Source of the DNA: an uncultured Caldilineaceae bacterium
GTDB lineage: Bacteria; Chloroflexota; Anaerolineae; Caldilineales; Caldilineaceae
DNA: 57,915 nt
Reading direction: 5' to 3'
Assembly (NCBI GenBank): GCA_964568485.1
Contig: CAZMRA010000001.1
Location: 4,701 to 62,615, forward strand
Part shown: piece by piece, positions 9,383 to 51,936 of the stretch
Layout: the number at the start of each line of letters is the position of its first letter
Numbering within the stretch: position 1 is the first letter of the stretch
Made by a program: the position numbers and the translations under genes
Notes under the pieces: generated by a model
What the model saw: the letters and a program-made list of their open reading frames with translations, nothing else
Databases searched by the model: none
What the model was told of the DNA's origin: nothing

Positions 9383-10446
9383 ACGGACAGTTCGTGGCTG
9401 AAGAAAAGTATCGCCCCGATGTTGCCCCGTTCCTCAGTTTGATGCGGGCATTGATTCCCGCCCTTATTGGGATTGGGCTGGCACTCGCCGTCGGGGCGAT
9501 CTTGATTGTCCTAGCTGGCGAAAATCCACTGACCGCCTACCGGGTGATGTTCGAGGGGGCAGTTGGCGGTCGTCGCCAGATCACCGAGACAGTGCTCAAG
9601 GCTTGCCCGCTGTTGATCATTGCGCTGGGTTTGGCGGTGGCCTTTCAGAGCCGAGTTTGGAATATCGGGGCGGAAGGACAATTTTTTATCGGCGCGCTCG
9701 GCGGCAGTTTGGTCGCCTTGCTACTGCCCGATCTGCCCCAAGGAGTGATGGTGCCCTTGGCCTTGCTGGCTGGGGTGATCGGCGGTGCTTTGTGGGCGCT
9801 CGTGCCTGGCCTCTTGCGCACCCGACGCGGCATCAGCGAGATCATTTCGACGTTGATGCTGAATTATATCGCCATCCTCTTTGTGCAATATTTGGCGCGT
9901 GGACCCCTGCAAGATCCGAAAGGGTTTCTGCCGGAATCGGCCCGCTTTGTGCCAGCTGCCCAATTGCCGATCTGGATTGCGCCGCGCATTCACATTGGGG
10001 TGCTGTTGGCCTTGCTGCTGGTGCCCGTAATCTATGTGTTGATCTGGCGGACGCCGCTCGGGTTTCAGTTGCGGGCAATTGGCTCCAAACCGACGGTCGC
10101 GCAATTCGTTGGGATAGATGTCGCCCGTGGCGTGATCTTGGCTTTGATGATCAGCGGGGCCTTTGCTGGGCTGGCGGGTGTGGTCGAAGTGATGACTTTG
10201 CACATGCGACTCAAGGCTGGGATCGGGGCTGGCTATGGCTTTACGGCCATTCTCGTGGCGCTGCTCGGGCGTATGAATCCCTTTGGCATTGTGTTGGCTG
10301 CACTCTTCTTTGCCGGTTTGACCATCGGCGCTGAGTCGCTGCATGTGGCGCTGCAACTGCCTGCCGCACTGGCGCAAGCCATTCAGGCGCTGATCGTCCT
10401 CTTTGTGTTGGGCACCGATGCCTTCTTCCGCTTGCGGCGCGCATAA
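9379..10446 (+). CDS. ABC transporter permease (BMP/ribose-type)
   Basis: Multi-TM protein. ATGA overlap with the upstream ATPase stop indicates translational coupling. Confidence 0.9.
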   Translation: MNGQFVAEEKYRPDVAPFLSLMRALIPALIGIGLALAVGAILIVLAGENPLTAYRVMFEGAVGGRRQITETVLKACPLLIIALGLAVAFQSRVWNIGAEGQFFIGALGGSLVALLLPDLPQGVMVPLALLAGVIGGALWALVPGLLRTRRGISEIISTLMLNYIAILFVQYLARGPLQDPKGFLPESARFVPAAQLPIWIAPRIHIGVLLALLLVPVIYVLIWRTPLGFQLRAIGSKPTVAQFVGIDVARGVILALMISGAFAGLAGVVEVMTLHMRLKAGIGAGYGFTAILVALLGRMNPFGIVLAALFFAGLTIGAESLHVALQLPAALAQAIQALIVLFVLGTDAFFRLRRA

Positions 10447-10457
10447 AGGAATTCACC

Positions 10458-11432
10458 TTGGATCTTTCAAGTATTCTGACTGCGAGTTTTTTGGTGGCGC
10501 TGATCACTGCGGGCATTCGTTTGGCCGTACCGATCCTGCTGGCTGTATTGGGCGAAATTGTCACCGAAAAGAGTGGTGTGCTCAATCTCGGTCTCGAAGG
10601 CATTATGTTGATGGGGGCGCTGGCCGGGTTTTTGAGTGCCTGGTGGTTGGAACAAGCCCAAGTCGCGCCGCTGTTCGCCGCCTGGGCCGGTTTGGGAGCC
10701 GGTGTGGTGGCTGGCGTAGGCATGGGATTGATCCTGGCGCTGTTGGCGATCAGCTTGCGTGCCGATCAGGTAATCGCCAGCGTGATGTTGGTCTTGTTGG
10801 GGCAGGGGCTCAGCAGTTATCTCTATCGGCAACAATTTAGCTCGCTGACGGCACGTATCGGTGGCTTGTCCACGTTCCCGATCCCCGGGTTGTCCGAGCT
10901 GCCGATTGTAGGGCCGATTCTGTTCAATCACAATCCGGCAGTTTATCTGACCATAGCCCTCGTGCCAGCAATCTGGTTTCTGCTGTATCACACCACTTTG
11001 GGGTTGAATATCCGCGCCGTGGGCGAAAATCCCGGGGCTGCCGAGGCTGCTGGCTTGAGCGTGGCGCGCATCCGTTATACCGCCACTTTGATCGGCGCTG
11101 GCTTGGCCGGGCTGGGTGGTGCGGTTCTGACAGTGGCTCAGTTGCAACTCTTCCGCGAAGAGATCACGGCTGGCCGCGGCTGGATCGCCGTGGCGTTGGT
11201 GATCTTCGCCCGCTGGCGACCGGGATTGGCCTTGGTGGGTGCGTTGCTCTTTGGCATTGCGGATGCCCTGCAACTGCGCATCCAAGCCCTGATTGGCAGC
11301 GATACTTCAGTCCCCTACGAATTGTTGTTGATGTTGCCCTACCTCTTGACCATCTTGGTGCTGCTGCGCGGCGTGCGCAACCAAGAGCGTCCGGCCAGCT
11401 TGGGCTTACCCTATCTGCGGGGTGAGCGGTAA
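10458..11432 (+). CDS. ABC transporter permease (second subunit)
   Basis: Multi-TM protein. TTG start lies 8 nt after AAGGA and 11 nt after the previous stop. Confidence 0.88.
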   Translation: MDLSSILTASFLVALITAGIRLAVPILLAVLGEIVTEKSGVLNLGLEGIMLMGALAGFLSAWWLEQAQVAPLFAAWAGLGAGVVAGVGMGLILALLAISLRADQVIASVMLVLLGQGLSSYLYRQQFSSLTARIGGLSTFPIPGLSELPIVGPILFNHNPAVYLTIALVPAIWFLLYHTTLGLNIRAVGENPGAAEAAGLSVARIRYTATLIGAGLAGLGGAVLTVAQLQLFREEITAGRGWIAVALVIFARWRPGLALVGALLFGIADALQLRIQALIGSDTSVPYELLLMLPYLLTILVLLRGVRNQERPASLGLPYLRGER

Positions 11433-11489
11433 GTCCTTCTGCTATACCCGTATGCGGTAGCTCGGTCAGAGATTCATCCAGCAATCTAC

Positions 11490-11518
11490 TTGACCATTCT
11501 TCGATGCGGTCGTACACT
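11490..11518 (+). promoter_or_regulatory. Candidate sigma70-type promoter for the NUDIX/NTase genes
   Basis: TTGACC (11490-11495), 17-nt spacer, TACACT (11513-11518). Found by eye only. Confidence 0.3.
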
Positions 11519-11601
11519 TTCCCTTCCTGCCGATCCGGCGCTTCCCAAGAGCTGACAGACTAATATCGTCTGGTGACCCCCTATGAAGGGATAGACAAGT
11601 T

Positions 11602-12033
11602 ATGGCGATGGCAATTCGAGTCCGAGCTTGTTTGGCTGTCCTTCACCAAGGTCGCATCTTATTGGTTCCTCATTATCAAACAGATGTGGGGAGTGTCCAG
11701 TGGAATGTGCCTGGCGGCCGGGTAGAATTTGGCGAAAGAGTAGAAGCGGCTGCACTTCGTGAATTTGAAGAAGAGACAGGGCTACGGGCACAGATCACAG
11801 GGCTGTTGATGGTGAGTGAGGTGATTCAACCAGCTAAACCCTGGCATAGCATCACCATTACCTATACAGGGCGGCTTCTGGATGGCCAACTCACCGCTGA
11901 GATTCATCCTGTGTACGGGCATAAAGAGCCGCAATGGTTTACGGCAGCGATGCTTGAGCAAGTCGAGTATCATCCAAGACCTGTCATAGAGAAGTTGTTG
12001 CGCCAGGGGTTTGATGAGTCGCTGGACACATAG
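11602..12033 (+). CDS. NUDIX hydrolase
   Basis: Nudix box GGRVEFGERVEAAALREFEEETGL. Confidence 0.9.
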   Translation: MAMAIRVRACLAVLHQGRILLVPHYQTDVGSVQWNVPGGRVEFGERVEAAALREFEEETGLRAQITGLLMVSEVIQPAKPWHSITITYTGRLLDGQLTAEIHPVYGHKEPQWFTAAMLEQVEYHPRPVIEKLLRQGFDESLDT

Positions 12034-16469: not shown

Positions 16470-17627
16470 TTAGGTCATCGACGGCACGAGCGGGCCAATC
16501 CCCCCACTTTGGCGAAAACAGCGGATCGCCAGCCGGTAATAGTCAATGAGCTGATCCATCGTGGCTTGCCAAGGGCGGCTACGGGCATGCGCCAGGGCGT
16601 CGTCTGCCATCTTCGCCAGCAACTGGGGTTGGTCGCGCAGCCGTTGGACGAGTGCCGTTATCTGCTCGGGGCGCTCGGGATCAAAGAAAAAGCCATTGAC
16701 ACCGTCATTGATAATGTCGAGTACGCCACCAGTACGTGCGGCGATCACTGGCATTCGGCAAGCCATGGCCTCTAAGGCCACAAGGCCAAAGGTTTCTGTG
16801 GTGGAAGGGAAGAGAAAGAGATCGGCCGCACGATAGGCCGCTACCAGATCATCTCCCCGCATATAACCGGGGAAGGTGGTGGGGGTGTTACGGTAGTATT
16901 CCTTTAGCTTGTCGTGGCTCGGCCCATGACCAATCATTGCCAAGCGCACACCTGGCACGCGGAAGAGGGGATCGCGCAAGGTTTCGAGCCCTTTTTCTGG
17001 TGCTTGTCGACCAACATAGACCGCGAGCAGATCGTCGGGGTGGCCGTCGGTGAGGCGCTCGCGCAGCGCTTGATCCCGCGGGCCGGGCTTAAACCGCTCG
17101 ATATCAACCCCACGTTGCCACCAACGGACGCGGCGAAACCCGTGCGCCCGGAGATCCTTCAAGATGGCCGTGGAAGGGCAAAGATTGAGCGAAGCCTGGT
17201 TGTGTAGTGAGCGCATATAAAACCAGAGCAGCGGGCTCAAAAAGCCACCCCCGTAATGTTGGGCATAACGGGCCAAGTCGGTGTGGAATGAGGCCACAAC
17301 CGGCACCTTTAATTTTTTGGCATACGAGAGGCCGAAGGGTCCCAGAAAAAAGGGATTGACGACATGTACAAGATCCGGCTGAAAGGCTTGGACGCGCTCC
17401 CAGACCCAGCGCTTGGGAATATTGACGCGCAATTCCGGGTAGAGGGGCAACCTGGGCCCACCCACACCAACGATCTCTGCGCCAGCATAAGTCGCAGGGC
17501 CACCCGGCGGCCCAAATAAGATCACTTGATGGCCGTGCTCTTGGAGCCGTTCCAGGGCCTGGCACAAAATGCTAACAATGCCATCAATTTTGGGTAGAAA
17601 AGTTTCGGTGAAGATCGCAATCTTCAT
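16470..17627 (-). CDS. sqdX: Sulfoquinovosyl-diacylglycerol synthase (GT4 glycosyltransferase, SqdX type)
   Basis: MKIAIFTETFLPKIDGIV... and the later stretches YPEL, HVVNP, VASFHT, WQRGVD and ETFGLVALEAMA closely follow cyanobacterial SqdX as I recall it. The gene is convergent with sqdB. Confidence 0.87.
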   Translation of the reverse strand: MKIAIFTETFLPKIDGIVSILCQALERLQEHGHQVILFGPPGGPATYAGAEIVGVGGPRLPLYPELRVNIPKRWVWERVQAFQPDLVHVVNPFFLGPFGLSYAKKLKVPVVASFHTDLARYAQHYGGGFLSPLLWFYMRSLHNQASLNLCPSTAILKDLRAHGFRRVRWWQRGVDIERFKPGPRDQALRERLTDGHPDDLLAVYVGRQAPEKGLETLRDPLFRVPGVRLAMIGHGPSHDKLKEYYRNTPTTFPGYMRGDDLVAAYRAADLFLFPSTTETFGLVALEAMACRMPVIAARTGGVLDIINDGVNGFFFDPERPEQITALVQRLRDQPQLLAKMADDALAHARSRPWQATMDQLIDYYRLAIRCFRQSGGIGPLVPSMT

Positions 17628-17742
17628 GGTACATCTATCTCCTTCGGGCTCCCTACGTACTCGCGCTATTTTCTCGGGTAACCCGTTTTAAGTTAGCCGC
17701 TGCTTCGCCTGGGCTAACCGACGCGCGTTCATGAACGATACA

Positions 17743-18414
17743 TTAGGTTTGGGGTGGCAACACAAAGCCCTGGGCAATGCTCTGCAAAGAAGGGCCGCTA
17801 GCGGCTGGTGGCAGATTCGTGGCTGGGGGTGTAGTTGCTCCTGGCGGCTGGTTGAGCAGCGACACCAATTGCGAGGTTGTCCGCTCATCAACCTGATAGT
17901 CGCCTTGTAGCCAACTTAGCACCGAGCGCATGGCTTTCCGGTCATCCGCGTTTAGCTTCTTGTAGTCATCGTTTAGCTTGCGAATGAATGATGTGCGGGC
18001 TTGGGCGCTAAGTTGTTCCCCAATCAGCGGCACTTTGCTGGACAAGAAGGCTAGGACGATCGAGCGCAACGCTTCGCTACCTTCACTACCGATGATCAAC
18101 AAAACCCCACGCATCAGCTCGGTGGTTTCATAAGTCTCATCAGCGAATTTTTTGAGATCAGTCGTCAGCGAGACACTGCGACTGGAGCTTTTGGCCGTTG
18201 TGCTCTTTTTTTGCGTCGTTGTCTTTTTGTTGGTTGTCTTTTTATTCGTTGTCTTTTTTTCTGCAGCTGTCTTTTTTGCCGCAGTGCTTTTCTTCGCGGT
18301 GGTTTTCTTTGCCGTGCTCTTCTTGGCAGTCGTCTTTTTCGCGGTTGTCTTTTTGGTCGTTTTCTTATTACTGGTGCTCGTCGTCTTGCCGCGCGTTACT
18401 TCCTCTTCGGCCAT
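17743..18414 (-). CDS. Protein with a histone-H1-like Lys/Thr/Ala repeat N-terminus and an unknown C-terminal domain
   Basis: MAEEEVTRGKTTSTSNKKTTKKTTAKKTTAKKSTAKKTTAKKSTAAKKTAAEKKTTNKKTTNKKTTTQKK..., followed by about 140 aa of non-repetitive sequence. GAGGTGG SD. Confidence 0.8.
   Translation of the reverse strand: MAEEEVTRGKTTSTSNKKTTKKTTAKKTTAKKSTAKKTTAKKSTAAKKTAAEKKTTNKKTTNKKTTTQKKSTTAKSSSRSVSLTTDLKKFADETYETTELMRGVLLIIGSEGSEALRSIVLAFLSSKVPLIGEQLSAQARTSFIRKLNDDYKKLNADDRKAMRSVLSWLQGDYQVDERTTSQLVSLLNQPPGATTPPATNLPPAASGPSLQSIAQGFVLPPQT
18189..18390 (-). repeat. Imperfect tandem coding repeat (about 12-15 nt units encoding KKTT/AKKTT)
   Basis: The plus strand shows reiterated GTTGTCTTTTT-like units. 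These also create the spurious plus-strand ORFs at 18152-18468. Confidence 0.7.
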
Positions 18415-18527
18415 TGTCCCACCTCGCTTCTGCTCCCTGAAACAGGGTTGATGATCTTGTCGCTATAAAACCATAGATTGCATGAATTTGCACGATTGAA
18501 CTGGTACAACATGCAAATGCGCGTCGT

Positions 18528-19142
18528 TCAGTTGCTGATAGTCTCGCTGCTGGTCACGGTAAGTGTGGTCGTGATCCCAGTCGTGAAGGGTATGGTGAGC
18601 CCGAGTGTATTGCTGAGCGCAAGCGTTGGTGTTGGCAGTAAGATCAGATTGGTGGTAGTGGCTGTTGCGGTTGGGCTCAGCGTTATGGTTGTGGTGATGG
18701 GCTCAACGAGGGTGTTATCGGTGATGGGTTCAGTTGTCGTCACCGCCGTGGTGATGGTGAGCGGCATTGTCGTGCTGATCGGCAAGGTGACTTCAGTTTC
18801 TGTAAGTGTTGGCGTTACTGCTGGCTCCGGCGTTGCGGTATCAGTGATCACCGGCGTCGTTGAGGGCGTTTCAGTCGGCGGCTCTAGGGTTTCGATGGTA
18901 GGCTCGGCGACCAATACGGCCAAGGTTGGTGTCAAGGTCATCGTCTCAACTAGTAGAACTGCAGGCTCACCCGCATTGGGTGGCTCGGGCTCGTTGGGCA
19001 TCCAGGCCGACGGCGCATAATTGTTCAAGTAAACCGGGATCGAAACCAGGATCATAAAGAGGATCACGCCGATCATATAGCCATAGAGGCGTGCCCGCCG
19101 GTGCGGAGGTACAGGGTGGCGAGGATCAAATGGCTGTTGCAT
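18528..19142 (-). CDS. Single-pass membrane protein with a Thr/Pro-rich low-complexity ectodomain
   Basis: TM segment YMIGVILFMILVSIPVYL, followed by TP-rich sequence (TETPSTTPVITDTATPEPAVTPTLTETE...). Confidence 0.7.
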   Translation of the reverse strand: MQQPFDPRHPVPPHRRARLYGYMIGVILFMILVSIPVYLNNYAPSAWMPNEPEPPNAGEPAVLLVETMTLTPTLAVLVAEPTIETLEPPTETPSTTPVITDTATPEPAVTPTLTETEVTLPISTTMPLTITTAVTTTEPITDNTLVEPITTTITLSPTATATTTNLILLPTPTLALSNTLGLTIPFTTGITTTLTVTSSETISN

Positions 19143-19245
19143 GAGCGACCTGACTAACGAGCATGCTTGCGCTGCGAATGATGATGTCTCGGCTAAGCTT
19201 GTATGAGCAGATAACCTAGAACATCATCATACCGCAGATGGCCGC

Positions 19246-21258
19246 TTATAACAATTGTCGCGGGATCGACTTCAGCCAGCGCCGCTGGTGGAAAGGCACA
19301 CCATCCATGGTAATGTCGAGTTGGATGGTGACGTGGAAATTGTGTTCATCGCTTTCGATCTGCCCGCGGGCGCGGGTGTTGATCTCCCGTTCGGGCCAGT
19401 GCAAAGTCACTTGGCTCAGCCCGCGGATGGTGGCGCGTGCCGGGTTCTTTTCAAAGACCGAGGTGGTGGCCTCTGCTGAACTGGTATAGGTCAGGGTGTC
19501 GCTCACGCGCACATAACCGCTGCGCTGCAGGTGAACTTCGGTCTTGTTTTCCATGTAATCCCGCGTGACTCGCCAAACTGGGCGTTCACTGTGACCACTG
19601 ATTGTGCTGGGGATGGTTGGCGGTGGCAGGAACTGCGGCGTGGGGAGGGCTTCGGTTTGCGGCCCCACCGTCGGCAAGATCACGCTGGAGGCCTGGTCGC
19701 CGCCAAAATAGATGTGCCCCGTATAGAGCTTGGGCGACGGCCACGAGTTGGGATAATCCGCGCCGTTGATGCTAATGCGGATGCGATGACCCGGCGCAAA
19801 GATCCAGCTGGTGGCGTCAAGCAAAAAGTTGACCGAGTACATCCGGCCTGGCTCCAGGGGCTCGGGCGTTTCGTGGGAGTTGCGATGGGTTAAGTTGAGC
19901 ACGCCTTTGGTAACCAATGCCGCCTGACCATCGGGCGCGATATCGGTCAGCCGCACAACGACAAAGGCGACATCCGCTGTGGCGGCAATGTGCAGTTTGG
20001 CTTCAGGGTACCCAAGGATTTCCAGCGGCTCGCTGAGCAGATCACTGGTCCAATTGAGTGAATAGGCATCCTCCACTCGCTGATCCATCGGCAAGATATG
20101 TGGACTGGCCGCGGAAAAGAGGCCAAAGCTTGTGCCCACTGTGGGGTTGTATTCATAACTGGCCGAACCAGCTTCATTGGGCCGTTCGGTTTGCAAGGCT
20201 TCATCTGCTGCCAAATAAAAGGGTTGCGCTATGCCGCGCTCTACCGGCCAGCTGGTTTCATAACGCCAAAAACCACTGGTCAATGGGCGGTCGGCTTGTG
20301 GCGGATCGTATTCTTGCACATAGATGCAGATGGGCGGCTCGCTCATCACCCCGTTATCGATATCTTTCAACCAATAGTCATACCAGCGCACCATCTCGTG
20401 GAGGTGGTCGATACGTGGGCCGGGGACGCCGACATCCGGCCGAGCGTGCAGCCAAGGGCCGATCAGCAACTTTTTGGGGGCTGTCAGGCCAGCAAAGGTG
20501 CGCAAATTGCAATTCGTATAGCCGTCGCGCCAGCCGCCGATCAGAAAAGTGGCCGCGGTGATCGCCGTGTAATCTTCGCAGAGTGACCCTTGGCGCCAAT
20601 AATCGTTGTAAACGTGATTGGACTCCCAGTCCAGCAGCCACGGTTCAGCCTCGAGATGATCGGCCCAAACCTGCGCCCAGCGTTCGCCAACCGCCTCGTA
20701 ATAGGGCGGCAGCGAATTCTGCACAACCATCGACAAGCCATAGGTGGCCATGTCGTAGAGCATCTGCATGGTTCCACCTTTGTAATGGCAATCGTCGGTG
20801 TAGCGATTGTCAGTGAAATACATGGGGCAGATGGCCTTGAGCGCGGGTGGGCGATGCATCGCTACTTGAAGCGAGTTAAAGCCCCCATAGGAAGTGCCAA
20901 ACATGCCCACTTTGCCGGTGCACCATGCTTGGCTTGCCATCCACGCGATCGCTTCGACCCCATCCAATTGCTCTTGCACTGAATACTCGTCGATGGCTGT
21001 GCCATCCGAACTGCCGGTGCCGCGCACATCGAGCTGAATCGAGACATAACCGTGTTGGGCAAGGTAGTGGTGATAGCGCGCCCCGCCTGCGGTCAGATCG
21101 TCTTTGCGATAGGGCAGATATTCGAAGAGGGCCGGGAATTGCCCGGGCGCATCGGGCATGTAGAGCGTGGCATCCAATTCAATGCCGTCGGACATGGGGA
21201 TACGAACATGCTTGACGACCCGTACAGCGTACGGCGCTTCTATGGCGTTGCCGGACAT
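19246..21258 (-). CDS. CocE/NonD family hydrolase (S15 X-Pro dipeptidyl-peptidase-like)
   Basis: The N-terminus IPMSDGIELDATLYMP...YLPYRKDD...DVRGTGSSDG and the nucleophile elbow GTSYGG are typical of CocE/NonD. Confidence 0.9.
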   Translation of the reverse strand: MSGNAIEAPYAVRVVKHVRIPMSDGIELDATLYMPDAPGQFPALFEYLPYRKDDLTAGGARYHHYLAQHGYVSIQLDVRGTGSSDGTAIDEYSVQEQLDGVEAIAWMASQAWCTGKVGMFGTSYGGFNSLQVAMHRPPALKAICPMYFTDNRYTDDCHYKGGTMQMLYDMATYGLSMVVQNSLPPYYEAVGERWAQVWADHLEAEPWLLDWESNHVYNDYWRQGSLCEDYTAITAATFLIGGWRDGYTNCNLRTFAGLTAPKKLLIGPWLHARPDVGVPGPRIDHLHEMVRWYDYWLKDIDNGVMSEPPICIYVQEYDPPQADRPLTSGFWRYETSWPVERGIAQPFYLAADEALQTERPNEAGSASYEYNPTVGTSFGLFSAASPHILPMDQRVEDAYSLNWTSDLLSEPLEILGYPEAKLHIAATADVAFVVVRLTDIAPDGQAALVTKGVLNLTHRNSHETPEPLEPGRMYSVNFLLDATSWIFAPGHRIRISINGADYPNSWPSPKLYTGHIYFGGDQASSVILPTVGPQTEALPTPQFLPPPTIPSTISGHSERPVWRVTRDYMENKTEVHLQRSGYVRVSDTLTYTSSAEATTSVFEKNPARATIRGLSQVTLHWPEREINTRARGQIESDEHNFHVTIQLDITMDGVPFHQRRWLKSIPRQLL

Positions 21259-27823: not shown

Positions 27824-28091
27824 ATCATCCAGCGGTTGTGTTTTGGCCAATAGCGTATCCAAGTAGCCGAAGCCCTGGCGAGCTGCTTGGTGGCTATTTG
27901 TTTAGACAATTCCCCATCATGTACAATTCCCTCACCTTTCGCCCATAGAACTCCTCAATCTGATGACGCTGGACCGTTTTTGACCTTGTTCATTGTTGTC
28001 ATCGTGTGGGCCTGCAAGCCATTTCATTCAACGCTTTTCCAAAACAACTTCAGATCTGCTGTTCGAGTGAGAGGACAGAGGAGGATGCTAC

Positions 28092-29240
28092 ATGAATCGT
28101 CGTGAGTTTATCCAGAATTTGGCGATCCGTACCAGCGCAGCCACTGCCTTGGGGATCGCCGTAGGTTGTACTGCGCAAGAAGTTGCGCCCCTCCCATCGC
28201 CACAAGCGATTGCGCAAGCGGATGATACCGGTAGCTTGCCTACCATCAACTGGGAGATGGCAACCAGCTGGCCAGTGTCGCTGGATATCATCTTTGGCAG
28301 TGCCCAATATTTTGCCGATCGGGTGGCTGAACTGACCGGCGGGCGCTTTACCATCACCGCACGTGCGGCGGGCGAGATAGCTCCTGGTCTCGAAGTGCTG
28401 AATGTAGTCGAACAGAATGCCGTGCAGATCGGCCACACGGCTGCCTATTATTACATCGGACGTAGCCCCGTCTTGGCCTTTGGGACAGCGGTGCCATTTG
28501 GCTTGACCGCCCAAGAACAAAATACCTGGCTCTATAATGGCGGTCTGGAACTGCTGCAGGAGATCTATGCCGAGAAATTCGGGGTGATCCAATTCCCTGC
28601 AGGGAATACGGGCGCACAGATGGGTGGCTGGTTCCGCAATGAGATCAACACCGTGGCCGACCTGCAAGGGTTGATTATGCGCATTCCCGGTCTGGGTGGA
28701 CAGGTGATGTCTCGCTTGGGCGTGACGGTGCAATCGCTGGCCGCCGGGGAGATCTTCCAAGCATTGCAAACCGGTACGCTCGATGCGGCGGAATGGGTAG
28801 GACCGTATGATGATGAAAAGTTGGGCTTAAATCAGGTTGCTAGCCATTACTATTATCCAGGTTGGTGGGAGCCGAGCGCTTCGCTCGAGGTGCAGATCAA
28901 TTTGGGTGAATGGGAGAAGTTGCCCTCCTTCTACCAAGAGGTGATCAAATCGGCAGCAGCGGAAGCGAATCTCATCATGTTGGGTCGCTACGAACAGGGC
29001 AATGCGGAAGCATTGACCCGTTTGGTCGAATCGGGCACTATCCTTTCGGCCTATAGCGACGAGATCTTGAATGCGGCTTACGAGGCGTCGTTCGCCATTT
29101 ACGACGAGTTAGCCGCCAGCGATGCCGACTTCAAGCGCGTATATGATCATTGGCTGAACTTCCGTTCGGCGCTCCAGCAGTGGCACGACATCAACGAAGG
29201 TGGCTTCACCCGCTTCCTGCACGGGAAGATGGGCAGCTAA
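28092..29240 (+). CDS. TRAP transporter substrate-binding protein (DctP family, Tat signal)
   Basis: [11 protein letters not shown] twin-arginine-like signal. DctP-type body. GGAGGA SD. Confidence 0.9.
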
Positions 29241-29247
29241 TTGCCTA

Positions 29248-29281
29248 GCGAGTGGCAGATGTGTCCCCGTTTGCCACTCGC
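29248..29281. terminator. 10-bp hairpin between the convergent TRAP genes
   Basis: GCGAGTGGCA-14 nt-TGCCACTCGC. No U-run. Confidence 0.45.
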
Positions 29282-29316
29282 CATCCCTCCTCACGCCCCG
29301 CCTAAACCTCGAATGA

Positions 29317-30654
29317 TTACCGTATCTTTGACATCTGCACCAGCCACGTGACTGACTCGGGGAAGATCATCACGATGATCAAGACGGCGATGGTCACAAA
29401 CATAAAGGGTATGGCCCCACGGAAGATATCTTGTAACGTGACCTCTGGCGGTGCCACGCTGCTGAGAAAAAAGAGGGTAAAGCCCACCGGCGGTGAGAGA
29501 TAAGCCGTGAGCAAGTTGATGCACATCAGAATGCCGAACCAGGTTAGATCAATCCCTAACAGCAAGCAAACCGGCACAAAGATTGGCATGACAATAAAAC
29601 AGATTTCGATAAATTCGAGAAAAATCCCCAGCAAAAAGACGATAACCATGCTGAAGATGAGGAAACTCCAATAACCGCCGGGGATACTCGCCAGCAGATC
29701 GACCAGCAGGCGGGTACCGCCCAACCCATCAAAGACAAGCGAGAAGATGGTCGAGCCAAAGAGAATTAATACGACCAGGCTGACAATGCGTAGCGTGTCG
29801 ACCGCTGCATCTCTGAGCAGTGCCCAGTTGAGTTTGCCATAGGCCAGGGCCAACAGAATGCCACCAAACGCCCCGACAGCGCCAGCCTCGCTGGGTGTGG
29901 CCAACCCGGCATAAATGCTGCCCAAGGTAGCGACGATCAATAAGAGGGTGGGTAACAGTGCCTTGACCACCCGCAGCCACAACCGTCCCCCGTAATCAGC
30001 AAGTAGATCTGACGAAATCGGTGGGGCCAGGTGCGGCTTGAGATAGCCAACGCCGACACAATAGAGGCCATACGCTGCGGTCAGGATCAGGCTGGGAATG
30101 ATCGAGCCGATGAAGAGATCACCCAACGGTACCCCGAGTTGGTCGGCTAGCACAACCAAAACGGTAGCTGGTGGAATCAACTGGGTGATTGTGCCGGCGG
30201 AGGCGATGGCACCCGTTGCCAGGGCTTTGTCATACCCCGCACGTAACATGACGGGCAATGAGATCAAACCCATGGCAATCACACTAGCTGCGACTACACC
30301 AGTGGCTGCCCCCAAAAGTGTGCCGACAATGACCACGCCGAGCGCCAAGCCACCCGGAATGCGCCCAAAGAGAATGCCGACCGTCTCAAGCAGATCCTCG
30401 GCCAGGCCAGATTTTTCCAACAGCGCCCCCATGTAGACAAAATAGGGGATTGATAGATAGGTGTAATCGTTCATGGTGCCAAACCAACGGCTTGGCAAGG
30501 TTAACAGCAATTCGAGCCGGAAAATCCCCAGTGCAAAGCCAAGGACGGCAAAACCGATCGCTGTGCCAGCGAAGGTAGGACCAATCGGATAGCCCATCGC
30601 CAAGGTGGCGAAGATGCCGGCAAACATCAAAATTGAAAGCCAGTGAAGATCCAC
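29317..30654 (-). CDS. TRAP transporter large permease (DctM family)
   Basis: 445-aa polytopic protein. GTG start after GGGGAGG. Confidence 0.9.
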   Translation of the reverse strand: MDLHWLSILMFAGIFATLAMGYPIGPTFAGTAIGFAVLGFALGIFRLELLLTLPSRWFGTMNDYTYLSIPYFVYMGALLEKSGLAEDLLETVGILFGRIPGGLALGVVIVGTLLGAATGVVAASVIAMGLISLPVMLRAGYDKALATGAIASAGTITQLIPPATVLVVLADQLGVPLGDLFIGSIIPSLILTAAYGLYCVGVGYLKPHLAPPISSDLLADYGGRLWLRVVKALLPTLLLIVATLGSIYAGLATPSEAGAVGAFGGILLALAYGKLNWALLRDAAVDTLRIVSLVVLILFGSTIFSLVFDGLGGTRLLVDLLASIPGGYWSFLIFSMVIVFLLGIFLEFIEICFIVMPIFVPVCLLLGIDLTWFGILMCINLLTAYLSPPVGFTLFFLSSVAPPEVTLQDIFRGAIPFMFVTIAVLIIVMIFPESVTWLVQMSKIR

Positions 30655-30764
30655 ACAAACCTCCCCGCACGAGTGTGAGTAGTAGGTCTATCAAGAACGC
30701 ATCCAGAGTTCTGCGCTTGGCGTTGCCGGAGATGTTGGCTGCGCAATCCCTTTGGATTCGGTGC

Positions 30765-31361
30765 TTAATCGATCGTCTGCTGTTCGTAATGTTCTAAATG
30801 GGCGAGGTGATCGTCCTCGGCCACGCCGAGAATCACTGCAAGATGTTTGATCAATTCAGAGATGCCCTGAATGATCAGCAGCGCAAAGGCCACAATAATC
30901 ATCGATTTGATCGGTGCGCGTGGCAGCCCGCCGGGATCGGGTGACACTTCCCACGGACCCCAAGTGCCGTTAGGACGTAAACCCCAGGAAGCCAGCACAG
31001 GTGTATAGGTCACATAAATGGCCAGAAAACAGAAGGGCAAGAGGAATAACAAGGCGCCGATCAGATTGATCCACGCGCGTTGACGCACACTGAATTTCGT
31101 GTAGAGAAAATCTACGCGGACGTGGTTATTGCGTTTGAGGACGAAACTGAACCCCAGCAAGAAGATGATGGAATAGAGATACCATTGGCCTTCGATCAGG
31201 GCATTGAAGGAGAGATTTTGGCCAATCAAGCGCGACAAATAACGGGTCGCGACATTGTATACCCCGATGGCCAGCAGGAGTGTCACCAAGACGACACCCA
31301 ACTTACCCACAAATTCCGAGAATGCGTCAATCGCAGCGGAGAGCTTGAGTAGCAGGCGCAA
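30765..31361 (-). CDS. TRAP transporter small permease (DctQ family)
   Basis: About 4 TM segments. TTG start lies 6 nt after AAGGAG. The nearby ATG at 31366 is out of frame. Confidence 0.85.
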   Translation of the reverse strand: MRLLLKLSAAIDAFSEFVGKLGVVLVTLLLAIGVYNVATRYLSRLIGQNLSFNALIEGQWYLYSIIFLLGFSFVLKRNNHVRVDFLYTKFSVRQRAWINLIGALLFLLPFCFLAIYVTYTPVLASWGLRPNGTWGPWEVSPDPGGLPRAPIKSMIIVAFALLIIQGISELIKHLAVILGVAEDDHLAHLEHYEQQTID

Positions 31362-44996: not shown

Positions 44997-45145
44997 ACTC
45001 GAAACCCCCTGTTCATTGATGCGGTAAGGCTATTTCCCCTAAATAGTCGCAATGAACAAGTGAATTTTGTAGCGTACGTCCGGGGAGCGGTTCATCACCA
45101 CTCCCCACGATCGTCCCCCACCTGACTATTTGCTGGCGGAGCGCT

Positions 45146-46165
45146 ATGACCAACAACAACCCAATTCCCCGCTATCAAGCTACATACCGGCGCGATGAAT
45201 TGCAGCTCATCTGTGATTATGCTCGGGAAGGGCGTTCGCTCGCCTTTGTGGGCGTGGCCGGTGTGGGCAAGTCGAATATTACGAACTTTCTGCGTTTTGA
45301 TCCATACGGCTACAAGCCGACCTATCTCGGCGAGGCCACCGACACCATCCTCTTCCCCTTTATGGACGGCAATGTCTGGAACCGTACGCCGCTGGGGCTG
45401 TGGGAGCAATTGTTGGCTGATCTCGAGCATAGTAGTGCGGATCTGCCACTCCCACCGCGTGACGAGAAAATCGTCCAGCTTTCGGAGGAGCAGCGCGTTT
45501 TTAGTGCCCTGCGCAATCACATCCACTGGTTGACGGCCGAGCATGGCCGCCAGATCATGTTCATCTTGGATGATTTTGACAATCTGTTGCGCTTTGGCCC
45601 CTTGACTATGCTGGAGCAGCTGTATACGCTGCGCTTGGCCGGGAACCAAAACAAGCTCAGCTATTTGATCTTTGTGAAGCGGCTGCCCGCGGCTTTGGGT
45701 CGTGCATTGCCGCTGAATGATCATGCCAAGTTTTACGATCTGTTCAAGCGCGACATCTATCCGCTCAAACCCTACGAGCACGAAGACATCGCTCAGATGT
45801 TGCGCTTCCTTAACGAGAACTCCGGTCGCCCGCTGCGGGCCAAAGATCTCGCCCTGATTGGCGACAAGCTGAGCGGAGGACATCCTGGCCTGGCCAAAGT
45901 GATCTTCAATCTGTGGCGCCGCGAAATGCCCGGCGAGGAGGAGGATCTAGTGCGCCACTTCAGCCAGCAGCCCGATGTGCTAGAAGAGTGTCGCCGCATC
46001 ATCGAACAGTTGCACCCCGAAGAACAAGCGACCGCCCGCCAGTTGGCCCACGGGCAAGCGTGCGATCCAGATTACGCGCAGCTTTTGGTGTGGCGTGGGC
46101 TCTTGAGCGATGTCGAAATCCCGACTTGGTTCAGCCCCCTGATGCCCGCCTATTTGCGGCAGTAG
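45146..46165 (+). CDS. Minimal STAND/NB-ARC-like P-loop NTPase with no sensor or effector domain
   Basis: Walker A GVAGVGKS (aa 36-43). Walker B IMFILDDFD (aa 137-145). Sensor-I-like YLIFVKR. IYPLKPYEHEDIAQML (LxPLxxxEA-like). GxP motif GGHPGLA (aa 244-250). Confidence 0.78.
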   Translation: MTNNNPIPRYQATYRRDELQLICDYAREGRSLAFVGVAGVGKSNITNFLRFDPYGYKPTYLGEATDTILFPFMDGNVWNRTPLGLWEQLLADLEHSSADLPLPPRDEKIVQLSEEQRVFSALRNHIHWLTAEHGRQIMFILDDFDNLLRFGPLTMLEQLYTLRLAGNQNKLSYLIFVKRLPAALGRALPLNDHAKFYDLFKRDIYPLKPYEHEDIAQMLRFLNENSGRPLRAKDLALIGDKLSGGHPGLAKVIFNLWRREMPGEEEDLVRHFSQQPDVLEECRRIIEQLHPEEQATARQLAHGQACDPDYAQLLVWRGLLSDVEIPTWFSPLMPAYLRQ

Positions 46166-46200
46166 TTTCGTGCTGTCTGGCCAAAAACGGAGAAATGCAG

Positions 46201-47154
46201 ATGGAACCTACAATCATGATCGTTGGCTTGCTTATCTTGCTGCTGATTGGCCTCTGGATCGGGCTCCGCATCCTCGGGGTGCGCGTAATCACTGTAAAGG
46301 ATGGGCAGCAATTGGTGGTTTCTCGCCTGGGCCGCATTCACCGCATCCTGACGCCTGGGCCGCGGATCTTCTTTGCTGGGTTTGAACGCATTGAGGGTGA
46401 GCTGGATGTGCGCGAGCAGCCCCATAATTTTTTTGTTGACGGCCTATTTATGAGCGATGTGCCGTTCGGATACACGCTAAATATCTGGTATCGCAACGAT
46501 CTGCTGGCCGCCAGCCAAGGCGATGACAATCGCTGGCGCGAACTGGCTCTTTTTAGCGATGAGGAACGCAAGGCCCAAGCCAGTGAGAAGCTGCGCAATG
46601 CCTTAACCCGCTGCTTGCACGAACTGGAGGCGAAGCAACCCGCGCCGCAAGATAGCCCATTGGTCGCGCGCATCTTGCCGATCTTCCCCGGCACGTCCGC
46701 CAATGAAACGCTGTTGCAGCGCCTGCAAAATGAACTGAGCAAGGCGTGGCCGTCGATTGGCATTCTGCCCTCCAGCCAACACCCGATCATCCTAAACAAA
46801 GTGCACTTGGGCAAGGATCTGCGTGAACTCTTCTCGTTGGGGCGCACCGCCAGCCAGATGCGCGAACTGTTGCCTAATCTTTCGTCCGAGTCGATCCTGC
46901 GTATGTTCGGCTCGATCGAGGGGCTGGATATGTCGCACATGCGCGAGCTGACGCTGCGTCAAGCTGGGGATACTGCCGCTGAATTGCGCATTGGGGAAGG
47001 GGAGGAGGTCGAAGCCGAGATCCGGGCCGCGCCCAAACCGCAGCGAACGCCCGCAGCGCCTGTCGCTAGCCCAGTGAGTGCCGATACTGTCCCGCTGGAA
47101 CAACTACGCAAAGAGGATTTGCGTTTGCTCAAGCAGGTGCCCCGGGCCTCTTGA
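46201..47154 (+). CDS. Divergent SPFH/band-7-like membrane protein
   Basis: N-terminal [20 protein letters not shown], followed by [45 protein letters not shown] (SPFH-like), a coiled-coil-like segment and a Pro/Ala-rich tail. Start placed at the ATG at 46201 (or 46195), after GGAG at 46188-46191. Confidence 0.68.
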
Positions 47155-48388
47155 TGTTCTCCTCGGAGACAGCGATGTGTGATTCTTGTTGTTGCTGTTG
47201 CCGAGCAGTGGCTCGATTGACCACTTGCACTGCTACAAAGGCGATCACAATATAGACAACAGCAGTACCCGCAAAGACCCCTCGCATCCCGAACCAGAGG
47301 GCAATGGCTGCCCCAATCATCGGAGCTACGGCGCGGGCTGAGGCCTGGATGCTATTGTCCAGCCCGTAAGTCGCACCGTGGTTGCCTGCCGGTGCCCAGA
47401 GATTCATCAACGCAGCGGTCGCCGGCATCAATCCACCAACCGCAATACCCGCCAAGGCTTGGAAGAAGACCAAATGCCAAGCCGAAGTTGCCAATGCTTG
47501 GGGAATGTAAAAGAAGCCCGCCGCAATGGCCGAGATGATCAAAATGCGGTTGTGCCCGCGTTGATCGCCGAGCCGCCCGAGCCAGCTCGCGGCAATGGCG
47601 CTAGTAAAGGCGGTGGCTCCTTGCACAAAGCCGGTCATGGTCGCGGCGCCCTGTTCGGTACCCAACAAACTCACCACAAATAGCGAGGTAATGGGGACGG
47701 TGATGGTTGCACCCAAGCTACGCAAAAAGGTCAGCGTATAGAGCCCCAACATGCCCGGCGCACTGATCAGCGAACGATAGCTGCTCCAGAATGAAGCTTG
47801 TTGATGGCGCGGCGCCGGTTTGAAGTCTTCCTCCACCCAAATAACGGCGGCGATACCGGCCAGCCCTAACAGCACGGCCGTGATCCAAAAACTCTCGCGG
47901 AAGCCAAAGGCGTCCCCCAGCACCCCGCCCAGGATCGGTCCGATCGAGACGCCGACCCAGCGCGAGGTTTGTAGCAGCCCCATTGCCTCACCCGAATGCT
48001 GCCGCGGCGTAGAGCCAGCTACCAGAGCATTGGCAGCCGAAATCACTCCACTGACACACCCTTGGATCGCCCGCAGAACGACCAATTGCTCGGCATTTTG
48101 GGCAAATCCCATCAGCGCCAACAGGATCGCTCCGCCGATGGTCGCGCGCTCGAGCATGATTTTGCGCCCGTGCCGATCCGAAAGCGAGCCCCAAATCGGC
48201 GAGGCGATCATCATGGTGATGGCTTGCGAGGAAAAGACCAGGCCCGCCCAAAATTCGATGTTGCCACCGCTGGCGACACCAAGTTCATTGACGTATAAGG
48301 GCAAGAAGGGAAAGACCAGGCTAAAGCCCGCAGTCGATAAGAGCTGTACGACAAAGACCACGTAAAGATTGCGGCGCCAAGCAGACAC
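47129..48388 (-). CDS. MFS transporter, DHA1/MdtG-like efflux family
   Basis: [17 protein letters not shown]...[10 protein letters not shown] closely parallels E. coli MdtG. GTG at 48388, 6 nt after GGAGG, preferred over the TTG at 48415. Confidence 0.87.
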
Positions 48389-48509
48389 AATTCCCCTCCC
48401 CCAGTTAGCTGTCAAAAAGGCATTGCAAGGCTTCTCGCCCCGAATTGGTTAGATAGTTGATTGGTTGTCTCAGGGCGAGAAGGATGGACTACGCAGGTGC
48501 AGCGATTAC

Positions 48510-50016: not shown

Positions 50017-50997
50017 TTACACCTGCCAAAGCTGTTCGGCCAGCGCCGCTAGAGAAGGCGCAGTCGCCACTATATCAGCTGGGGCGGCTTCCAGTACGTC
50101 AAATTCGTGTAGCAATGTGTGGCTCATGGCACGTCGTACAAACAACGCACTTGTAGTCGCTTCTCCGCCGTAGCTCGTCAAAAATTGGCGCAACAAGTTC
50201 CGATCGGTTCGAAAAAGCCCTAGGTGCAGCGCCACCAATTCATAGTGCCAATCGCCCACCCGCGCATCGCCAAAGTCGATGATGCCGCGGGGCTGCCAGC
50301 ACCCGTCAACAAATTCCCCCAACACATGATCGTGATTGAGATCGGCGTGAATTAAGCACCAACGAGCAGGCGGCTCGATCAGCAACTCATCGGGCAGCAG
50401 ATAGTTTGGGAGCTCGGCGAGCAGGTGAGCGGGCAGACGACCCCACTGTTGGTGACGTGCCACACAGGCCAGCCGCCGGTCGCGGATGAACTCGCTGAAT
50501 TCAGGGCGGCTCTGCTGAAGCAAGCCACTTTGGGCCAGCGGTAAGTTGTGGAAACGCCGCAAGCAATTGCCTAACCAACTGGCCAAACGCAGCGCATCCG
50601 CTCGACTTGCCTGCGTACTCACCTCGCCCCAACTGACGCCAGGAACCCGGCTGAGGATGAGATAGGGCCACTCACCGTCGGTGAAAAGCCGACCCGCTGC
50701 ACGGAGTCGTGGCGCCGGAAGCGCATCGGCGGTGGCGAGCAACTCGTAGATCGCCCGTTCGTGCGCAAAGCTGCGTTCTCCGTCAAAGAGCTTGCTCTCG
50801 AAAAACTTGATCACCACACCCGCGGCCCCATCATCCACCACAAAGACGGGATTGGTACCAGCCATGCCCGCCTGCAGACCATGCAGCGGAATTCCATACC
50901 GCGCACAGACTGCCTCAATATACGGCCGCCAGTACGCAACCTGCGTGAACAGGGCGCCATATTCTTGCGGTGAGTGATAAACCGGTTTTTGCAGCAT
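50017..50997 (-). CDS. Aminoglycoside phosphotransferase (APH) family kinase
   Basis: Catalytic loop LIHADLNHDHVL and IIDFGDARVGD. Confidence 0.85.
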   Translation of the reverse strand: MLQKPVYHSPQEYGALFTQVAYWRPYIEAVCARYGIPLHGLQAGMAGTNPVFVVDDGAAGVVIKFFESKLFDGERSFAHERAIYELLATADALPAPRLRAAGRLFTDGEWPYLILSRVPGVSWGEVSTQASRADALRLASWLGNCLRRFHNLPLAQSGLLQQSRPEFSEFIRDRRLACVARHQQWGRLPAHLLAELPNYLLPDELLIEPPARWCLIHADLNHDHVLGEFVDGCWQPRGIIDFGDARVGDWHYELVALHLGLFRTDRNLLRQFLTSYGGEATTSALFVRRAMSHTLLHEFDVLEAAPADIVATAPSLAALAEQLWQV

Positions 50998-51021: not shown

Positions 51022-51936
51022 TTACTTCATCAAATCAGCCAACAATTCGGCCAGAGCTATCATCTCTTGCCACCAACGGCTATTCTCTTCATAGTCCCAC
51101 CACCCACAGAGCACCGCTTGAGCAATTCCCCAACCGAGGATGCGTTGGCGGTCAAACCCCAGTTCGCTCGCCAACAGATGCACACGGCGGGCTTGCACCC
51201 GGCGATCCTGTACGAGTTCGGGTCGGGGATTGCACAGCAGGGCGCCGATGTCATAGGCCGGTTCGCCGACCAGCCCTTTCGGATCAATGGCTAACCAAAG
51301 CTCGCGTTCGGCACTCAGGATGTTGAAATGGTGCAAGTCGCCATGTAACAACACCGGTTCCGCTGCTGAGGCCAGCAGCTCGGCGTAGAGGGATTCGGCC
51401 TGCTCCACCAACTTGGTCGGGAATGGCCCCGTGCCGCCGCCAAAGTGGGTGCGCAATTCAGCCAGTCCGTTGGCCCAGGTGGCAATCGTCGGGAAGGGAT
51501 GATCCGCAGGCACGGGCCGCCACAACTGGCGCATGACCGTGGCCGCAATGCACGTCGCCGCTTCATCATCTTCAACGGTGCTGAGCATCACCCCCGGTTG
51601 CAGCCGCTCTAACAGGAGGATGCCTTGCTCCGCATCGCTGTCGAGCAAGCGGCAGATCCCGTGGCCGGCATAAAGCCGCAGGGCCTCAATCTCGGCGTTG
51701 ATCTCTTTGTTGGGCACGCCCAACTTCAGCATGACTGGTGTCCCATCGCTACGCATAGCTGGGGCCACATAGTTGTAGGAGAGATTCGCCACCGGTGCGT
51801 GGATAGTCAGCGACCAACGCCGCTCACACTCGGCGAGTAGCTGGGGCAATTGCTCCAGCCAGGCGCGGGCCTGCTCTCCGTACAAGGCTTGTTGCGTCCG
51901 GATAAACTCCTCGGGTAGCGGATACTTCACGCTCAT
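51022..51936 (-). CDS. APH(6)/StrB-like streptomycin 6-kinase family protein
   Basis: LLHGDLHHFNILSA...WLAIDPKGLVGEPAYDIG parallels StrB LHGDLHHENIM...WLVIDPVGLVGE. Confidence 0.87.
   Translation of the reverse strand: MSVKYPLPEEFIRTQQALYGEQARAWLEQLPQLLAECERRWSLTIHAPVANLSYNYVAPAMRSDGTPVMLKLGVPNKEINAEIEALRLYAGHGICRLLDSDAEQGILLLERLQPGVMLSTVEDDEAATCIAATVMRQLWRPVPADHPFPTIATWANGLAELRTHFGGGTGPFPTKLVEQAESLYAELLASAAEPVLLHGDLHHFNILSAERELWLAIDPKGLVGEPAYDIGALLCNPRPELVQDRRVQARRVHLLASELGFDRQRILGWGIAQAVLCGWWDYEENSRWWQEMIALAELLADLMK

Follow-up and report, generated by a model that had tools for sequence, protein, structure and literature searches.

Can a nucleotide switch of the STAND class work with a separately encoded membrane scaffold rather than with sensor and effector domains of its own? 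The question is raised by two adjacent genes, here called A and B, in a 57,915-nucleotide (nt) stretch of DNA from an uncultured Caldilineaceae bacterium (GenBank assembly GCA_964568485.1, contig CAZMRA010000001.1, positions 4,701–62,615), the whole of which is referred to below as the window. Work on STAND/NLR-type switches normally concerns single large proteins with sensor and effector in cis, and SPFH scaffolds, to which the product of gene B is related, are known mainly together with NfeD or FtsH, most of them having no defined bacterial function. Comparison of related loci identifies A and B as an obligate, co-inherited pair in the Chloroflexota orders Caldilineales and Anaerolineales, and a role in membrane-linked signalling is the one that we tentatively favour.

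The gene pair and its conservation

The two genes and the spacer between them are as follows, with positions counted from the first nucleotide of the window (ORF, open reading frame; aa, amino acids):

45146–46165, plus strand: gene A, ATG start, 339 aa, TAG stop at 46163–46165 (from the ORF list)
46166–46200, plus strand: spacer between A and B, 35 nt, with GGAGA at 46189–46193, 7 nt ahead of the B ATG
46201–47154, plus strand: gene B, most plausibly starting at this ATG, 317 aa

A preliminary description of the region had proposed two co-directional genes here, 35 nt apart, and this is confirmed both by the ORFs and by an independent gene caller, which gives the same 339- and 317-residue products in four other assemblies of the same organism. 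Both are real genes and not chance ORFs, because A has 210 homologues in a set of 5.8 billion proteins (down to E=1e-81) and homologues of B are present in every related locus.

A pattern scan for A in 185,579 species-representative genomes yielded 68 loci, and all but one of the bins that carry them are Chloroflexota metagenome-assembled genomes (MAGs; Caldilineales, Anaerolineales, Ca. Amarolinea and Litorilinea), the single exception being labelled Aminicenantes. Two loci lie at a contig edge and three nanopore-derived MAGs have frameshifted copies. There are 57 loci with an A of about 330–350 aa and downstream DNA, and in all 57 a homologue of B lies directly 3′ of A on the same strand, as found by profile iteration (50 by single-sequence search); the expectation that the pairing would be conserved in relatives is thus borne out. 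The gap between A and B has a median of 12 nt and is no longer than 50 nt in 48 of the 57 loci, and the two genes are probably co-translated. The pairing holds down to identities of 25 % for A and about 19 % for B. The divergences of the two proteins are correlated (r=0.91), B being the faster-evolving, with a mean pairwise identity of 29 % compared with 39 % for A. The loci recovered contain one canonical pair per MAG, and the longer, OmpR-fused paralogues of A described below have no B alongside. The homologues of B were taken from the DNA downstream of A homologues; a word-indexed search gave just four to six, even with a profile.

The two proteins

Protein A was compared with the features by which STAND proteins are recognized (Leipe et al. 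2004), namely the Walker A and B motifs, the three-part module, the GxP motif, a match to a curated profile, and sensor and effector domains. Its principal parts are:

45251–45274, plus strand: Walker A motif GVAGVGKS, A residues 36–43
45554–45580, plus strand: Walker B motif IMFILDDFD, A residues 137–145
45875–45895, plus strand: GGHPGLA in the lid, A residues 244–250, a degenerate STAND GxP motif
45947–46162, plus strand: C-terminal winged-helix domain, A residues 268–339, acidic (isoelectric point, pI, 5.1)

These motifs, together with YLIFVKR at residues 173–179 and IYPLKPYEHEDIAQML at residues 204–219, are all present in the translation, as had been reported. Among 48 orthologues the Walker A lysine (K42) is retained in 46 of the 47 in which this alignment column is occupied, and none of the 47 has lost either glycine; in Walker B, D142 is invariant (48 of 48) and position 143 is always D or E (48 of 48). 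G244, H246 and R163 are likewise invariant, and the nucleotide site, conserved to this extent, is probably active. The proline of the GxP motif is found in just three of the 48, with alanine (29) or serine (16) in its place; GGHPGLA had been called as the GxP motif, and the call is probably right by homology, the OmpR-fused paralogues carrying TGGYPALL where A has GGH[A/S/P], although the proline itself is exceptional. Within the winged helix L289, R317 and G318 are invariant and H290, considered as a possible counterpart of the STAND ‘MHD’ histidine, is conserved in 47 of 48, though this histidine is absent from the paralogues. Other conserved blocks of the alignment are LDDFD, GGH, (E)CxR-I...LH..EQ and the wing RG-LL...WFSP. 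In two Anaerolineae orthologues, P0091 and P0093, the Walker A lysine is replaced by glutamine (GIGQSN), with the remainder conserved; both may be nucleotide-binding-deficient variants.

Searched alone against Pfam, A gives sub-threshold matches throughout, to AAA_16 (30.2 bits, cut-off 32.6) and AAA_22, and it had no match in NCBIfam, PADLOC or the PDB sequences. At the level of the family, 12 of 24 members matched nSTAND6 and 11 of 24 NACHT, with weak E-values, and 10 of 24 matched NPHP3_N; AAA_22, AAA_16, NB-ARC, ATPase_2 and nSTAND1/5 were also found, and a match to EAD2 (effector-associated domain; E=0.02, in one of the 24) was rejected as a chance one. Where a source is named for a homologue of A, it is always Chloroflexota (Caldilineaceae, Anaerolineae), and the 120 matches listed are 328–367 aa long, with a query coverage of 93–100 %. 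A profile search of 1.84 billion representatives gave 1557 relatives, 148 of them at E<=1e-30. The top 60 or so are of the A type (330–346 aa where full length), and the next tier consists mainly of proteins of about 440–465 aa, to whose first 340 or so residues the whole of A aligns. These paralogues pass the nSTAND1 threshold (27.6–40.9 bits, threshold 27.1) and add a C-terminal OmpR-type DNA-binding domain (Trans_reg_C). The A-like module (NOD) is also found in other architectures, as Ser/Thr kinase plus NOD, as kinase plus NOD plus OmpR domain, and as TIR plus NOD. We note that P0249 (527 aa) has the last of these, and that P0199 (1784 aa) combines NOD, an OmpR domain, TCAD9 and TIR; as read from their sequences, these two fusions tie the A clade both to transcription control and to conflict-type effectors.

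The AlphaFold model of A is of good quality (predicted local distance difference test score, pLDDT, 86.6; predicted template-modelling score 0.84) and consists of a P-loop domain, a helical lid (residues 212–259) and a winged helix (268–338). A Foldseek search of the PDB with this model found archaeal Cdc6/Orc1 (1fnn, 1.8e-7; 2qby), eukaryotic ORC subunits and CED-4, the archaeal MNS-type ATPases 2qen (template-modelling score, TM-score, 0.57) and 2fna, with matches spanning 320–400 columns, and also MuB and TnsC; the modelled combination of P-loop domain, lid and winged helix is one common to initiator AAA+ and STAND proteins. No Box-VII arginine is conserved after the fourth strand in the alignment, and this, with the acidic winged helix, argues against A being an Orc1/Cdc6-like DNA-binding initiator. 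Together the three domains account for the entire 339-residue chain, and Pfam recognizes no further domain, whether repeat sensor, effector or DNA-binding domain, in keeping with the earlier observation that A has neither sensor nor effector. A truncated LAL/MalT-type regulator is ruled out, because the length of about 340 residues is stable across homologues, both among the 120 listed and among the top 60 or so representatives, and the three-domain model is complete. In terms of sequence relationships A is thus a bare, stand-alone STAND-class nucleoside triphosphatase (NTPase) module, to which the nSTAND1 clade is closest; the assignment to the STAND class, proposed at the outset, is firm only through the paralogues that exceed the nSTAND1 threshold, while A's own profile scores remain sub-threshold.

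The product of gene B is divided as follows:

46210–46272, plus strand: single transmembrane helix, B residues ~4–24, Kyte–Doolittle maximum 2.76
46282–46809, plus strand: SPFH domain, B residues ~28–203, from the QmcA/HflK alignment, the model and Foldseek
46963–47094, plus strand: Pro/Ala-rich linker, B residues ~255–298, pLDDT 30–42, probably disordered
47095–47142, plus strand: conserved C-terminal peptide, pattern L-[TS]-x-x-D-L-x-[VIL]-L-K-R-V-P

On its own B scores 16 bits with Band_7 (threshold 23.6, residues 31–79) and its match to QmcA is marginal. With the family the relationship becomes evident, Band_7 being found in 19 of 25 members (best E=4.5e-11) and the family profile matching QmcA most closely (1.7e-9), then HflK (1.9e-5), and also HflC and stomatin. 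The alignment shows a typical N-terminal SPFH opening, VPEEERLVIYRLGRFxRxAGPG, after the membrane helix and before the conserved core. The AlphaFold model, made from a six-sequence alignment, has a pLDDT of 68 and is confident at residues 70–250, with two long strands (73–99), four helices (109–186) and further strands (188–203); residues 26–66, which hold the SPFH signature, are poorly modelled, residues 205–254 form short helices and residues 257–317 are of low confidence. The moderate quality reflects a shallow modelling alignment, since the word-indexed search missed most relatives of B. Even so, the top 49 Foldseek matches in the PDB are all of the SPFH fold (stomatin, prohibitin, HflK/C, flotillin and major vault protein), and TM-scores against isolated SPFH domains reach 0.70 on the target. 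Profiles and model together therefore identify B as a true, if divergent, SPFH/Band-7 membrane protein. The preliminary description had recognized an SPFH core, although it confined it to the first 90 residues or so, and the domain extends over residues ~28–203; the coiled-coil-like segment said to follow is not supported by this moderate model, in which the long helices belong to the SPFH domain. The N-terminal anchor and the Pro/Ala tail that it also described are readily seen, the former as a strongly hydrophobic helix and the latter in the sequence itself.

Across 51 family members lysine and arginine together number on average 0.02 ahead of the helix and 2.7 within the 15 residues that follow it, so that by the positive-inside rule B is predicted to have its N-terminus outside and its C-terminus inside, which would place the SPFH domain and tail in the cytoplasm, where A is. 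The linker is hypervariable in both length and sequence across the family. The terminal peptide is not: in a 25-sequence alignment L310 and K311 are invariant and L302 nearly so, and the peptide is recognizable in a distant clade as PLTxxxMxxLK. The idea that serine or threonine residues in the tail track the presence of a kinase-like neighbour, as phosphorylation sites, was dropped when inspection turned up counter-examples.

Neighbouring genes and the leader

In the window the pair is flanked on one side by genes for GalT, a ROK kinase, a radical-SAM protein, a HAD protein, a YccF-domain protein and an aminotransferase, and on the other by an MFS transporter, an unknown protein, a HEAT-repeat protein, two APH-type kinases, DinB and GNAT. 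No NfeD gene, the usual companion of SPFH genes, is present among these neighbours (the nearest being YccF, aminotransferase and MFS) or among the scanned recurrent neighbour clusters of related loci, as the preliminary description had remarked for the window. The two tandem kinase genes (50017–50997 and 51022–51936, minus strand) lie 3–5 kb 3′ of the pair and match APH (95.7 bits) and APH_6_hur (161.5 bits); they have no similarity to TCAD9 or to the kinase-like neighbours found at other loci.

These other loci show a recurrent set of signalling genes. A histidine kinase of about 1125 aa with three GAF domains is present in 29 loci (for example L044:2941-6318) and a TCAD9/APH kinase-like protein of about 525 aa in 28 (for example L007:6382-7953; TCAD9 57.8 bits, cut-off 40). 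The N-terminus of the latter looks receiver-like by eye, and Pfam gives no Response_reg match at E<=0.001. The kinase genes occur in two arrangements, upstream and co-directional or downstream and convergent, and in the upstream arrangement genes for a PocR-type kinase and a stand-alone receiver often come first. The ancestral state may thus have been a signalling cluster of six genes, made up of the GAF kinase, the TCAD9 protein, the PocR-type kinase, the lone receiver, A and B. A second kinase-like family, of about 850 aa, is present in ten loci and lies directly 5′ of A in seven of them. Where at least 5 kb is available on both sides (33 loci), at least one signalling gene is present in 27 and a kinase-like gene in 24. 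The locus was first regarded as a two-gene module, and while the pair is indeed strict, the module is probably larger in most genomes. None of these recurrent partners, including the GAF kinase and the TCAD9 protein, is found anywhere in the 57.9-kb window.

The other recurrent flanking genes are of a housekeeping kind, encoding an MFS transporter, a class-I/II aminotransferase, a CPBP protease, polyphosphate kinase, Mrp antiporter subunits and an ABM monooxygenase. The MFS and aminotransferase genes flank the pair in the window too, and the same MFS family lies 3′ of the pair in 11 loci including this one. Three further families were noted. A STAND-like ATPase of about 960 aa with an ATPase_2-like domain and, by eye, a membrane-spanning N-terminus is encoded directly 3′ of B in five loci (L003:10179-13064); a STAND-like ATPase of about 518 aa with an unknown 150-residue N-terminal domain is encoded beside the convergent kinase genes in seven (L055:14566-16122); and a family of about 636 aa, with a Cys-rich N-terminus and hydrophobic segments by eye, is encoded directly 5′ of A in five (L022:5697-7607) and had no match in Pfam or PADLOC.

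Upstream of A, the preliminary description had pointed to a hairpin and suggested that the pair is its own transcription unit:

45010–45058, plus strand: nested hairpin 3′ of the aminotransferase gene, a fold and a weak terminator candidate

The hairpin is there, although it does little to support the suggestion: folding of the 151-nt leader is not significantly stronger than that of shuffled controls (z=-1.3), a terminator scan did not call it, and it has diverged in the closest relative, L001, which is 89 % identical. An Rfam search of the region returned nothing. The 149-nt gap that precedes A in the window is better evidence for a separate unit, the nested hairpin being weak evidence, and in relatives the median distance from A to co-directional genes upstream is 133 nt, compared with the median gap of 12 nt between A and B. 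A second, G+C-rich hairpin (GGGGAG-N13-CTCCCC, 45082–45106) lies 40–64 nt 5′ of the A start and is near-identical in L001; it could be a 5′-leader element, the comparison comprising two sequences, too few to judge. An antisense ORF that overlaps gene A (45095–45883, minus strand, 262 aa) looks like the usual shadow ORF of a G+C-rich coding region, and nothing marks it as a gene. At the other end, the last 26 nt of B (47129–47154) also belong to the convergent gene for the MFS transporter (47129–48415, minus strand), the two 3′ ends overlapping and leaving no room for separate terminators. In the window as a whole AT skew is marked at 9000–12000 (-0.23), 17000–20000 (-0.19) and 28000–31000 (+0.21) against a flat background.

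Possible roles and known systems

What would such a pair do? The explanation we favour, tentatively, is that A and B quite possibly constitute a lineage-specific, membrane-linked signalling device in which the tail of B recruits A to a membrane scaffold, and which has no anti-phage function. B would oligomerize on the inner face of the membrane, like other SPFH proteins, and its flexible tails would display many copies of the C-terminal peptide, on which soluble A could dock. The protease PH1510 recognizes the C-terminal region of its SPFH partner PH1511, a precedent for a partner that reads an SPFH tail. A classical STAND protein has its platform and its sensor in cis, whereas here B would provide the former, and possibly also the latter, in trans; coupling would link the ATP/ADP state and self-association of A to the state of the scaffold in the membrane, and the neighbouring phosphorelay and kinase-like proteins would give the input or the output. 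In a more specific form, which we regard as possible and rather doubtful, the pair would be a split STAND complex of multicellular Chloroflexota, where a cytoplasmic SPFH scaffold replaces the repeat sensor, the tail peptide gates ATP-dependent assembly of A, and the state of the membrane is passed to the GAF-kinase/TCAD9 phosphorelay.

A signalling role is favoured by the completeness and stable length of the A switch module, by the predicted cytoplasmic orientation of B, by the strict pairing, by the lack of any defence signal, by the recurrence of signalling neighbours in two gene orders, by the natural fusion P0199, which joins an A-like module to TCAD9, and by the retention of the B tail peptide in both clades despite the hypervariable linker. 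Several points weigh against it. A itself lies below the threshold of every curated STAND profile. The model of B is moderate and contains no long coiled coil of the cage-building kind, so that oligomerization of B is an assumption. The window and a few relatives have no kinase neighbours within reach, so that the link to signalling genes is facultative, and the correlated divergence of A and B is explicable by shared vertical descent alone. Finally, modules related to A occur in fusions with TIR (P0249, P0199), a domain typical of conflict systems.

This last point also favours a different explanation, a conflict or anti-phage (abortive-infection) role in which the STAND protein senses an invader and oligomerizes and the SPFH protein is a membrane-directed effector or superstructure. 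The hosts of the pair are presumably filamentous, multicellular Chloroflexota, which would suit such a system. Bacterial immunity of the Avs/NLR-like kind depends centrally on STAND NTPases, it was in predicted counter-invader systems that nSTAND1 itself was defined (Kaur et al. 2021, PMC8195603), and TCAD9 and Band7-like ‘superstructure’ domains have been described in NTP-dependent conflict systems of multicellular bacteria (Kaur et al., PMC7159879). Every test of context is contrary, however, and the defence role raised by the preliminary description seems unlikely. PADLOC-DB v2, which includes Avs/AVAST, gave no match for A, B or nine neighbours or relatives, no copy was found in 2.9 million viral contigs, and neither the window nor the related loci have a defence-island context, the flanks being housekeeping genes (GalT, ROK kinase, aminotransferase and MFS in the window; MFS, CPBP protease and polyphosphate kinase in relatives). 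There is one canonical pair per MAG among the loci recovered, the divergence looks vertical rather than patchy, sensor repeats are absent from A, and a toxic effector domain is recognizable in neither protein.

The strict one-to-one operon pairing and tight spacing would also suit a dedicated ATPase for the assembly, disassembly or quality control of the B scaffold, using ATP to load, remodel or dismantle B oligomers as AAA+ proteins do on membrane polymers. The fold of A resembles those of the loaders and initiators Cdc6/Orc1, MuB and TnsC, and an AAA+ partner for SPFH cages has a known precedent in HflK/C–FtsH (PDB 7vhp and 9cz2). Yet the nearest relatives of A are switch-type STAND regulators with OmpR DNA-binding or kinase domains, the alignment has no conserved Box-VII arginine finger after the fourth strand, and no pore-loop or substrate-threading features were noticed in A, no analysis having been aimed at them; we think this role improbable. 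Quite improbable, too, is a sequestration switch resembling PspA–PspF, by which B would hold A until released A paired with DNA-binding paralogues, or itself bound DNA, and altered expression. The sister group of A is indeed the same module fused to Trans_reg_C, A retains a winged helix, and a DNA-binding paralogue is encoded about 1 kb 5′ of the pair in L046. That is, however, the only one of the 57 loci with such a paralogue nearby, the winged helix is acidic (pI 5.1), and nothing points to hetero-oligomerization. That two unrelated genes are neighbours by chance is scarcely credible and is effectively refuted by an order kept in 57 of 57 loci with a median gap of 12 nt while every other flanking gene changes.

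A signalling pair of this kind would be a small two-protein system for how an SPFH assembly communicates with a soluble partner, with the C-terminal peptide of B as a concrete candidate docking peptide. The associated histidine kinases and TCAD9 kinase-like proteins offer a functional lead for uncharacterized families of the Anaerolineae, bacteria that are abundant in wastewater and sediment communities and for which, to our knowledge, there are almost no genetics. No principle is overturned by the pair, whose function we infer.

Description of the A–B pair was not found in the open-access literature, an absence that is not proof. The nSTAND1 clade was defined without a link to SPFH proteins (PF20703; Kaur et al. 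2021, PMC8195603), Band7-like domains are fused to vWA proteins in the ‘ternary’ conflict systems (Kaur et al., PMC7159879), an arrangement that differs from A–B, and the survey of prokaryotic SPFH families by Hinderhofer et al. mentions no ATPase partner. Over its full length A aligns with the N-terminal 340 or so residues of nSTAND1 proteins, and it has the Walker motifs in common with them, although the proline of their GG-x-P lid motif is mostly lost in A; nSTAND1 members bear OmpR-type DNA-binding, Ser/Thr kinase, TIR or TCAD9 domains, whereas A has none of these and is tied to a separate SPFH gene. MalT/LAL/AfsR-type STAND regulators, Orc1/Cdc6 and the MNS ATPases share with A the three-domain nucleotide switch. 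The MalT/LAL regulators have TPR-like sensors and a LuxR helix-turn-helix, in contrast to the sensorless A, and Orc1/Cdc6 proteins bind DNA through a basic winged helix and use an arginine finger, whereas the winged helix of A is acidic and a Box-VII arginine is not conserved in it.

On the membrane side, the SPFH–NfeD operons (E. coli QmcA–YbbJ, PDB 8z5g; Pyrococcus PH1511/PH1510) likewise encode an N-terminally anchored SPFH protein and a dedicated partner in two genes. Their partner is a membrane NfeD protein, whereas that of B is a soluble STAND ATPase encoded 5′ of the SPFH gene, and B, to judge from its moderate model, lacks their long coiled coil and has instead a disordered linker and a conserved terminal peptide. 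HflK/C–FtsH also combines an SPFH membrane scaffold with a P-loop ATPase of AAA+ lineage, and HflK and HflC are among the matches to B; FtsH, however, is a membrane-embedded hexameric protease with pore loops, A being soluble, switch-type and devoid of a protease domain, and HflK/C faces the periplasm while B is predicted to face the cytoplasm. In Bacillus subtilis YdjI/SamI and PspA (PMC8581546; bioRxiv 10.64898/2026.02.06.704340), an SPFH membrane-linked adaptor is similarly described as part of a stress-signalling operon, together with the ESCRT-III-like PspA and small membrane proteins and, unlike A–B, with no NTPase switch. The parts of the A–B pair thus belong to known superfamilies, STAND (nSTAND1-related) and SPFH, and it is their combination that differs both from the described SPFH partnerships with NfeD, FtsH and PspA/YdjGHI and from the described STAND architectures.

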